In this document: piece after piece, positions 1-1,334 of the stretch | Layout: the number at the start of each line of letters is the position of its first letter | Position numbering within the stretch: the stretch's first letter is position 1 | Assembly: GCF_003334815.1 (NCBI RefSeq) | Contig: NZ_QOWO01000100.1 | Source of the DNA: Escherichia coli | GTDB taxonomy: Bacteria; Pseudomonadota; Gammaproteobacteria; Enterobacterales; Enterobacteriaceae | Length of the DNA: 1,334 nucleotides | Reading direction: 5' to 3' (one strand) | Position numbers and translations under genes: made by a program | Notes under the pieces: generated by a model | What the model was told of the DNA's origin: nothing | The model's input: only the letters and a program-made list of their open reading frames with translations | Databases searched by the model: none

Positions 1-804
1 AACCAGATGGACCCGGTGTACACGCCGGCGCGAAAAATCCACCTGTACCACTGCGACCATCGCGGCCTGCCGCTGGCGCTTGTCAGCACGGAAGGGGCAA
101 CAGAATGGTGCGCAGAATACGATGAATGGGGCAACCTGCTGAATGAAGAGAACCCGCATCAGCTGCAGCAGCTTATCCGCCTGCCGGGGCAGCAGTATGA
201 TGAGGAGTCCGGCCTGTATTACAACCGCCACCGCTATTATGACCCGCTGCAGGGGCGATATATCACTCAGGATCCGATTGGGCTGAAAGGGGGATGGAAT
301 TTTTATCAGTATCCGTTGAATCCGATCTCAAATATAGATCCATTAGGATTAGAAACACTAAAATGCATTAAGCCACTGCATTCAATGGGCGGAACTGGTG
401 AAAGAAGCGGTCCAGATATATGGGGGAATCCGTTCTATCATCAATATCTTTGTGTCCCAGATGGTAAAGGGGACTATACTTGTGGTGGCCAAGACCAACG
501 GGGAGAATCAAAAGGAGATGGTCTATGGGGGCCAGGTAAAGCAAGTAATGATACAAAAGAAGCTGCTGGCCGTTGTGACCTCGTTGAAACCGATAATAGT
601 TGTGTGGAGAACTGTTTAAAAGGGAAGTTTAAAGAGGTAAGGCCGCGTTATTCTGTATTGCCTGATATATTCACACCTATAAATTTAGGGCTATTTAAAA
701 ACTGCCAAGACTGGTCTAATGATTCTTTAGAAACATGTAAGATGAAGTGCTCCGGAAATAACATTGGACGTTTTATTAGATTTGTATTCACCGGAGTGAT
801 GTAA
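1..804 (+). CDS. rhsC: Rhs family protein, C-terminal portion (5'-partial; gene continues upstream of the window): conserved core tail plus variable C-terminal putative toxin domain
   Basis: The frame is open from nt 1 (AAC CAG precede the ATG at 7), so the ATG at 7 is an internal Met, not the start. The translation carries a terminal YD-type repeat ([22 protein letters not shown]) and the Rhs core-terminating motif [13 protein letters not shown] (DPLGL at nt 337-351). Downstream of it composition switches to AT-rich and the protein becomes a Cys/Gly-rich 150-aa tail ([14 protein letters not shown]...FVFTGVM). Stop codon TAA at 802-804. The symbol is recalled from E. coli K-12 RhsC element organisation and needs BLAST confirmation; the family call is firm. 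Confidence 0.88.
337..351 (+). other. DPxGL motif (DPLGL) marking the end of the Rhs conserved core and the boundary to the variable C-terminal domain; expected autoproteolytic release site
   Basis: Codons gat cca tta gga tta at 337-351, preceded by PLNPISNI. In characterised Rhs/YD-repeat proteins this PxxxxDPxGL element ends the core and an aspartyl-protease-like activity cleaves here. The GC-rich to AT-rich switch falls within about 20 nt of this motif. Confidence 0.8.
352..801 (+). other. Variable C-terminal domain of the Rhs protein (putative toxin domain, about 150 aa, 9 cysteines, function not identifiable from sequence)
   Basis: Everything after DPLGL to the stop. AT-rich, unlike the core. 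Residues [96 protein letters not shown]... I see no HNH, HExxH, deaminase HxE/CxxC or ART signature. Confidence 0.7.
793..796 (+). promoter_or_regulatory. Shine-Dalgarno-like GGAG for the downstream membrane-protein gene, lying inside the 3' end of the rhs CDS
   Basis: GGAG at 793-796, 7 nt upstream of the ATG at 804-806. Together with the stop/start overlap TAATG (802-806) this suggests translational coupling. Confidence 0.55.
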
Positions 805-1130
805 TGAAATATATTATTTTTTTATTCAGAGCTATATGGCTGGCTTTATCGCTTTTAATACTATTCTTTTCCATGCATAGACTTTCACTATTAGACTCCA
901 CTCGTGATGTGAGCGAGTTAATTAGTCTCATGTCTTATGGAATGATGGTAATATGTTTTCCAACAGGCATAGTATTCTTTATTGCTCTAATATTTATAGG
1001 GACTGTATCAGACATTATTGGCGTAAGGATTGATAGTAAGTATATTATGGCGATAATAATATGGCTTTATTTTCTGTCAGGAGGGTATATTCAATGGTTT
1101 GTATTAAGTAAGCGCATTATAAACAAATAA
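804..1130 (+). CDS. ybfB: Small polytopic inner-membrane protein (108 aa, about 3 predicted TM helices); putative cognate immunity protein for the upstream Rhs C-terminal domain
   Basis: Complete ORF from ATG 804 to TAA 1128-1130. The start overlaps the rhs stop by 1 nt (TAATG) and has a GGAG SD. It shares the AT-rich composition of the rhs C-terminal domain, so they look like one module. Three hydrophobic stretches: YIIFLFRAIWLALSLLILFFS, ISLMSYGMMVICFPTGIVFFIALIFIGTV and YIMAIIIWLYFLSGGYIQWFVL. The position immediately 3' of an Rhs toxin domain is the canonical immunity-gene slot. The symbol is recalled (K-12 ybfB is, to my memory, a 108-aa membrane protein downstream of rhsC) and unverified; the immunity role is inference. 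Confidence 0.72.
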   Translation: MKYIIFLFRAIWLALSLLILFFSMHRLSLLDSTRDVSELISLMSYGMMVICFPTGIVFFIALIFIGTVSDIIGVRIDSKYIMAIIIWLYFLSGGYIQWFVLSKRIINK

Positions 1131-1160
1131 ATTAAGTTAATTGCTCTTATTATTATATGT

Positions 1161-1334
1161 AACCTGGGCATTGATATCCCGTATGCCACAGACCCGGCAG
1201 GTAACCGCCTGCCCGACCCGGAGCTGCACCCGGACAGCACCCTCAGCATGTGGCCGGATAACCGTATCGCCCGTGACGCGCACTATCTTTACCGGTATGA
1301 CCGTCACGGCAGGCTGACAGAGAAAACCGACCTC
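1161..1334 (+). CDS. ybfO: Orphan Rhs core fragment (5'-truncated rhs coding sequence with no start codon of its own, continuing past the window end); probable start of a second, displaced rhs C-terminal/immunity module
   Basis: GC-rich sequence resumes abruptly near 1161 after the AT-rich module. Frame 3 is open from the stop at 1128-1130 to the window end and translates to ...[58 protein letters not shown], which contains a canonical YD-repeat (YxYDxxGRL). The first in-frame ATG is at 1248 with no convincing RBS. The symbol is recalled from the K-12 RhsC element and unverified. Confidence 0.75.

Follow-up and report, generated by a model that had tools for sequence, protein, structure and literature searches.

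An AT-rich tip/ybfB cassette at the RhsC junction of Escherichia coli, probably placed by C-terminal displacement

A stretch of 1,334 nucleotides (nt) of Escherichia coli DNA (RefSeq assembly GCF_003334815.1, contig NZ_QOWO01000100.1), referred to here as the window, contains the 3' end of rhsC, followed by ybfB and an N-terminally truncated RHS pseudogene, as determined by megablast against 5,426 complete E. coli genomes, the sample behind all megablast counts given below. The window is the known RhsC element of E. coli K-12, a textbook case and no new finding, in which the GC-rich Rhs core is followed by a unique AT-rich cassette of 821 nt (340-1160, plus strand; 36% GC, with a GC content at third codon positions, GC3, of 0.31) comprising the C-terminal tip of RhsC, ybfB and a short spacer. 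We consider it probable (about 0.85) that this cassette was placed in the RhsC junction region by C-terminal displacement, and that the tip is a toxin for which YbfB provides immunity. Descriptions of the compositional mosaic of Rhs elements go back to the Hill laboratory, and the mosaic is the standard way to spot displaced tips. The present locus offers a clean, fully resolved worked example, with both edges located at nucleotide level and with natural strains that lack the unit, carry it as a tandem duplicate or hold a copy at a second locus.

Anatomy and composition of the junction region

The rhsC reading frame is open from nt 1 of the window up to the stop codon at 802-804. Nucleotides 1-312 (plus strand; ~57% GC, GC3 0.68) hold the 3' end of the conserved Rhs core, in which the Pfam family RHS (PF03527) matches amino acids (aa) 11-47 of the rhsC part within the window with an E value of 7.6e-15. 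Full-length RhsC displays DUF6531, at least 11 RHS_repeat matches and the Pfam RHS match, constituting a large RHS/YD-repeat core. Two DPxGL motifs are present in the window, the first of which is DPIGL at 271-285. The dividing line between core and variable tip is the PxxxxDPxGL motif at 313-351 (plus strand), as placed by the motif coordinates, an alignment of six rhs junctions and a BLAST breakpoint at 339/340, and the same motif is found at the junctions of rhsA, rhsB, rhsD and the rhs gene of the rpmE locus. It is followed by the RhsC C-terminal tip, or core extension, a putative toxin domain of 150 aa (352-804, plus strand; coding part 352-801, stop 802-804). The ATG of ybfB shares one base with the rhsC stop codon (TAATG), and this downstream open reading frame (dsORF) is a putative immunity gene of 108 aa (804-1130, plus strand), annotated as 'protein YbfB'. 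The last part of the unique block is an AT-rich spacer of 30 nt (1131-1160), after which the start of a 5'-truncated Rhs core fragment (1161-1334, plus strand) is recognised by BLAST, the junction alignment and annotation as a copy of rhsC from codon 894.

Comparing the window with the paralogous rhs loci reveals how abruptly homology ends at the motif. Over the 336 nt preceding DPxGL, the window shares 79-99% identity with rhsA, rhsB and rhsD of strain MG1655 and with the rpmE-locus rhs, while the 336 nt after it show 25-29% identity to the same genes, which is the random level. In the nucleotide alignment of the six junctions, homology to the other cores stops between nt 323 (rhsA, rhsO) and nt 351 (rpmE-locus rhs), and the unique block therefore spans approximately nt 340-1160. 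The paralogs share the compositional pattern, as their GC content is 0.53-0.60 before the motif, 0.32-0.43 in the tip and 0.30-0.37 over the next 330 nt, with a drop in every one of them.

The mosaic itself is real. Three GC values counted by hand in the original prediction (58%, 33% and 68%) agree with the computed values of 0.583 (1-60), 0.333 (841-900) and 0.683 (1201-1260) in windows of 60 nt. A maximum-likelihood model with two change points places the breaks at 297 and 1177, giving segments of 0.589, 0.360 and 0.637 GC, and the log-likelihood gain of the three segments (37.1) exceeds that of every shuffled sequence (mean 6.8, standard deviation 1.9, maximum 14.2; n = 300). The two edges differ in character. 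Transitions had been proposed at the DPLGL codons and at about 1160, and the right one holds, being sharp with a 2-lnL support interval of 1157-1192, core homology from 1161 and a perfect match from 1176. The left one is correct to within a few tens of bases but is gradual rather than sharp, with a support interval of 255-647. This width is explained by the first half of the tip, which has 45% GC and local windows of 0.52-0.53 at 451-540. Furthermore, the left drop begins at about 298-330, within the conserved end of the core (NFYQYPLNP...) and 25-50 nt ahead of where homology breaks off (323-351). In all paralogs, the final ~40 nt of conserved core sequence (298-336; AATTTTTATCAGTATCCGTTGAATCCGAT...) are already AT-rich, and the compositional break therefore precedes the break in homology.

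Within the block, composition is heterogeneous, with 41.6% GC in the tip, 31.2% in ybfB and 16.7% in the spacer. The windowed GC and codon-usage analysis suggested earlier likewise sets the block apart, since GC3 is 0.31 in both the tip and ybfB vs 0.68-0.72 in the core, and rare codons make up 13% of the tip and 22% of ybfB vs 3-7% in kdpA, kdpB, ybgA, phrB and the rhsC core. The compositional bias is thus at the DNA level, at synonymous sites. The Rhs core at 61% GC is itself atypical beside its native neighbours at 50-56%. It could be argued that the shift merely reflects amino-acid content, i.e., a hydrophobic membrane protein rich in Ile, Phe, Leu and Lys next to a small Cys-rich domain, with no separate history. 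YbfB is indeed strongly hydrophobic and its first and second codon positions are also low in GC (0.32 and 0.32). However, GC at third positions drops to 0.31 from 0.68-0.72, rare codons become 3-7 times as frequent, the most AT-rich part is the non-coding 30-nt spacer, homology to the paralogs stops at the same place as the composition, and the orthologous locus of other strains is without the block. The GC3 and presence/absence data refute this explanation, to which we attach a negligible probability.

The GC-rich right flank is not chromosomal backbone but heads the displaced tip module that comes next (rhsO/ybfO and ybfC). The stretch of the rhsC core that its first letters correspond to, from codon 894, reads NLDIRIPYATDP, and window positions 1176-1334 align by BLAST to rhsC sequence located 696 nt upstream of the window. 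The earlier picture of a cassette grafted onto a conserved GC-rich core thus describes the left flank well but not the right one, which is a 5'-truncated second core copy heading another tip. In K-12-type strains, this fragment continues into a different tip and its partner ORF ybfC (rhsO/ybfO-ybfC), and in strain G4/9 it heads a second copy of the rhsC tip and ybfB. It is annotated as an N-terminally incomplete RHS pseudogene. Between the ybfB stop and the ATG at 1248-1250, no ATG, GTG or TTG start is found, and the orphan is therefore without its own start at its 5' boundary. The orphan core fragment shares its reading frame with the ybfB stop codon (1128-1130).

Searches for other features gave little. 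An Rfam scan of both strands of the window returned no match at E <= 1, promoter-like sites (5 vs 3.4 +/- 2.0) and terminator-like sites (1 vs 0.8) are at chance level in the window, and an internal repeat search yielded a single 12-nt chance pair and no inverted repeats.

Distribution, variation and probable history of the cassette

The rhsC locus lies between kdpFABC-ybfA on one side and ybgA-phrB on the other, and more than 2,500 E. coli genomes have an annotated rhsC. Over 1,332 nt, the window shares 99.2% identity with K-12-type strains, which have the identical gene set of rhsC, ybfB, the truncated RHS pseudogene and ybfC. Among the matches listed, only G4/9 matches the whole window at 100%. 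The 821-nt block is found in 2,779 of the 5,426 genomes, where the median is a single place; altogether it occupies 2,802 places, at most two per genome, so that no more than 23 genomes hold a second place. The Rhs core sequence, in turn, is found in 3,888 genomes with a median of five places.

Where the block is present, it hardly differs: of the 2,779 genomes holding it, 2,714 have it at 99% identity or more. Differences between strains amount to 0-4 in the 821-nt block vs 4-17 in the 339-nt core flank (window 1-339), where they cluster at 18-288. The original prediction expected conserved flanks around a variable block. The block does vary by presence/absence and replacement and not by mutation, and comparison of the rhs loci bears out the change from conserved to unrelated sequence at the motif; within carriers, however, the block is more conserved than the core flank. 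Treating a block as conserved as the core as grounds for rejecting a cassette is ill-posed, and the higher conservation does not refute the cassette idea, because Jackson et al. (2009, BMC Genomics 10:584, PMC2935791) found tips to be well conserved, with diversity arising by replacement and cores scrambled among paralogs. The polymorphism of the core flank is consistent with gene conversion among the approximately five core copies per genome.

Several natural strains display alternative arrangements of the same region. O157:H7-type strains have the same kdp-ybfA...ybgA locus without a 1,871-bp unit consisting of core piece, tip, ybfB and spacer. At this locus in O157:H7 and FDAARGOS_1277, the ybfC-linked tip, an orphan in K-12-type strains, is fused to a full-length rhs gene. 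In the K-12 rhsO orphan (locus record 10568-10960) as well as in the full-length rhs of O157:H7, PLNPVQYIDSMGL connects the core with the ybfC-linked tip, so that the second motif there is DSMGL and not the canonical DPxGL. Downstream of ybfC, two O157-type loci (9344-10400 and 9316-10698) contain small genes annotated as 'NTF2 fold immunity protein' and DUF6258 as well as a short RHS fragment, which suggests additional decayed tip/immunity modules before the ISAs1 remnant. Matches with 38% coverage do not represent a different cassette between the same flanks, as the right flank of the window there matches upstream of the left flank and both are parts of one continuous core.

In G4/9, the 1,871-bp unit stands as a tandem duplicate with zero differences (region 7305-11046 of the locus record, in which the window matches 8001-9334 and 9872-11205), giving the order rhsC-ybfB-[rhsC' fragment]-ybfB-[rhsO fragment]-ybfC. 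In strains SCU-109 and MLI106K1, an RhsC tip truncated by ISAs1 occurs together with ybfB and the same spacer-core junction in an rhs array at the rpmE-metJ locus. This displaced tip keeps its last ~100 nt (~35 codons) and ybfB, and is followed by the dsORF-f3 orphan (locus records 5998-6460 and 5992-6452). Strain 2014C-3075 has the dsORF-f3 orphan, instead of ybfC, after rhsC-ybfB. In strain EC24 (NZ_CP182191.1), the block matches in two pieces over 1,598 nt with an IS1A transposase annotated beneath, which suggests that IS1 has inserted into the cassette.

These arrangements fit what is known of Rhs elements. The GC-rich core, the AT-rich core extension, the GC-poor downstream region with partial cores and the GC peaks delimiting dissociated tips have all been described (PMC2935791), and the window corresponds to the RhsC scheme of the Hill laboratory with its G+C-rich core, A+T-rich core extension, dsORF and partial core repeat. 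The only difference from the RhsC element of K-12 is the tandem duplication of the 1,871-bp unit in G4/9. Likewise, the displacement arrays reported by Jackson et al. for Serratia SMA1610 and an E. coli clade IV locus consist of an attached tip, a GC-poor stretch and a partial core with a tip, as in the window. In both cases, a GC peak and homology to the upstream core mark the fragment boundary, and tips are conserved and exchanged rather than mutated. The demarcation by PxxxxDPxGL, the downstream immunity ORFs and the orphan modules were described by Poole et al. (2011, PLoS Genet 7:e1002217, PMC3150448), whose orphans keep a piece of upstream homology without a start codon, like the orphan in the window. 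The reading of the block as a foreign cassette within the core-extension/dsORF framework is thus supported by the paralogs and by the O157:H7 locus without the block, and this framework is the correct known one (PMC2935791).

Based on these comparisons, a history of the locus can be proposed. A segment composed of the 3' core piece, tip and ybfB may have recombined with a resident rhs gene through core homology, which would have set the RhsC tip on the full-length gene and left the former tip (rhsO/ybfC) further downstream, as a silent orphan. Later on, this core homology could allow the unit to be lost, duplicated in tandem or passed from one rhs locus to another. The event could also have run in the other direction, if the K-12-type arrangement is ancestral and the O157-type strains lost the tip/ybfB unit by recombination between direct core repeats, i.e., by loss and not by horizontal gain. 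Direct repeats of ~1,035 nt flank the unit and make a loop-out mechanically easy, the mostly orphan-type allele pattern of O157 is the expected remainder of an early crossover, and the near-identity of the block across its carriers is compatible with long vertical inheritance. Even so, a loss still needs an earlier acquisition, since the cassette occurs at a second locus too and in diverged versions in other genera. In addition, the core piece adjoining the RhsC tip is a distinct allele, and independent displacement of a shared ancestral tip has been documented at another E. coli rhs locus (Jackson et al. 2009, PMC2935791). Allele sharing between the core copies is informative on orthology, yet not decisive on the polarity of insertion vs deletion. 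Overall, loss appears the less likely course, and displacement of the former tip by the incoming cassette is preferred.

Low GC content across genera

Homologues of the RhsC tip are found in Buttiauxella, Salmonella enterica and a third genome outside E. coli, with 60-71% aa identity starting exactly after DPLGL. In each of these three loci, a YbfB-like ORF (35-39% aa identity) follows directly after the tip homologue. The YbfB-like proteins are far more diverged than the tips they accompany.

The tips of E. coli, Buttiauxella and Salmonella all have a GC3 of 0.31, and that of the ybfB homologues is 0.25-0.32. Since this low GC3 is kept although synonymous divergence (dS) between the three tips is saturated (3.2, or not computable), low GC is a stationary property of the cassette family and not a decaying mark of recent import. 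Composition thus does not show that the cassette was recently imported, and horizontal acquisition rests on the comparative evidence and not on GC. A GC3 near 0.3 across genera may point to selection, e.g., silencing of toxin tips by nucleoid proteins, or to a permanent low-GC cassette pool.

It could accordingly be speculated that AT-richness is no donor signature at all but a state that Rhs tips and immunity genes keep up stably, owing to AT-biased mutation and relaxed selection where expression is rare, to selection for H-NS-type silencing or to residence in a shared low-GC pool. Such maintenance would account for the similar GC3 in three genera with saturated dS and for the 30-43% GC of all E. 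coli tips and dsORFs examined. It would also account for the same offset in a GC-richer host, as a Serratia core of 67.7% GC carries a tip of 46.4% (PMC2935791). Nevertheless, independent recent imports from one low-GC pool would look alike, and maintained AT-richness is compatible with horizontal transfer, in favour of which speak the presence/absence pattern and the occurrence at two loci. We regard this as a credible minority explanation of the composition, and as the strongest of the alternatives considered here; a tip/ybfB cassette placed by displacement is retained as the account of the locus.

The RhsC tip and YbfB as a putative toxin and immunity pair

The RhsC tip and YbfB form an uncharacterised pair that E. 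coli K-12 shares with roughly half of all sequenced E. coli. What remains novel at this locus is how the tip acts, how YbfB would block it and why tips stay AT-rich. In the cdiA-CT/cdiI and rhs-CT/rhsI modules (PMC3150448), the tip is set off by a short motif, VENN or PxxxxDPxGL, and a small immunity ORF lies directly after it, and RhsC is organised in the same way. Toxicity and immunity have been demonstrated for the Dickeya modules (PMC3150448), and by analogy the RhsC tip and YbfB would have the corresponding roles. The designation as a toxin/immunity cassette in the original prediction therefore agrees with position and linkage, with the two roles assigned by analogy. From the same position and linkage, the tip is most likely an antibacterial toxin and YbfB its putative immunity protein. 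The proposed mechanism would start from a GC-rich YD-repeat core that is fused in frame at PxxxxDPxGL to the 150-aa tip, which is in turn translationally coupled to ybfB. Autoproteolysis at the DPxGL aspartyl-protease motif is predicted to free the tip from the Rhs shell, and YbfB would neutralise the released tip in the producer.

The tip contains nine cysteines, with conserved H10, H30 and C118 and eight further Cys, and has no sequence match in Pfam, NCBIfam or the PDB. Its homologues comprise only 33 clusters, all of them enterobacterial where the source names an organism. The predicted structural model weakly resembles permuted papain-like hydrolases, and candidates of structural likeness among these and the NlpC-P60-related Cys hydrolases are YiiX (2if6), PLAAT4 (7zot), CLN5 (6r99), PPPDE (2wp7) and Vibrio cholerae TseH (6v98). 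In contrast to these, the tip lacks a sequence match to any Pfam family, possesses eight extra conserved cysteines and has a polytopic membrane protein as its partner, and the fold assignment is tentative. Our best guess at its enzymatic class is a Cys/His hydrolase of the permuted papain-like type, rich in disulfides and active at the envelope, the site of action being guessed from its membrane-embedded partner YbfB.

YbfB itself has 3-4 hydrophobic spans by hydropathy and no match in sequence searches of Pfam, NCBIfam or the PDB. A literature search retrieved no functional study of E. coli ybfB and no experimental report of RhsC tip toxicity or YbfB immunity. Papers on a Bacillus subtilis 'YbfB' and an integron 'ybfB' appear to treat other genes of the same name. 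Taking composition and structure together, it is conceivable, albeit doubtful as a whole, that the low GC of Rhs tip/immunity cassettes is actively maintained and that the RhsC tip founds an uncharacterised toxin family, disulfide-rich and permuted papain-like, whose neutralising partner is a polytopic membrane protein.

Finally, in strains without a type VI secretion system (T6SS), the rhsC tip and ybfB may not serve inter-bacterial killing but be a silent relic or an internal toxin-antitoxin-like module. Neither vgrG nor PAAR is seen at the locus: neither vgrG nor eagR adjoins rhsC in four E. coli loci, and RhsC residues 1-1200 give no Pfam match to PAAR. Linkage to type VI components (PAAR, adjacent vgrG/eagR) is not universal among Rhs. 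Rhs elements acting as type II toxin-antitoxin-like modules have been reported in Salmonella (PMC7043789), and RhsF/RhsFI of enterohaemorrhagic E. coli is expressed independently of the T6SS (PMC7618764). On the other hand, ~2,500 genomes keep the full-length ORF, the tip and ybfB intact and with hardly any variation, which argues for function. We regard a silent relic or internal module as the less likely reading. At the Salmonella homologue, a VgrG gene lies ~5 kb upstream.
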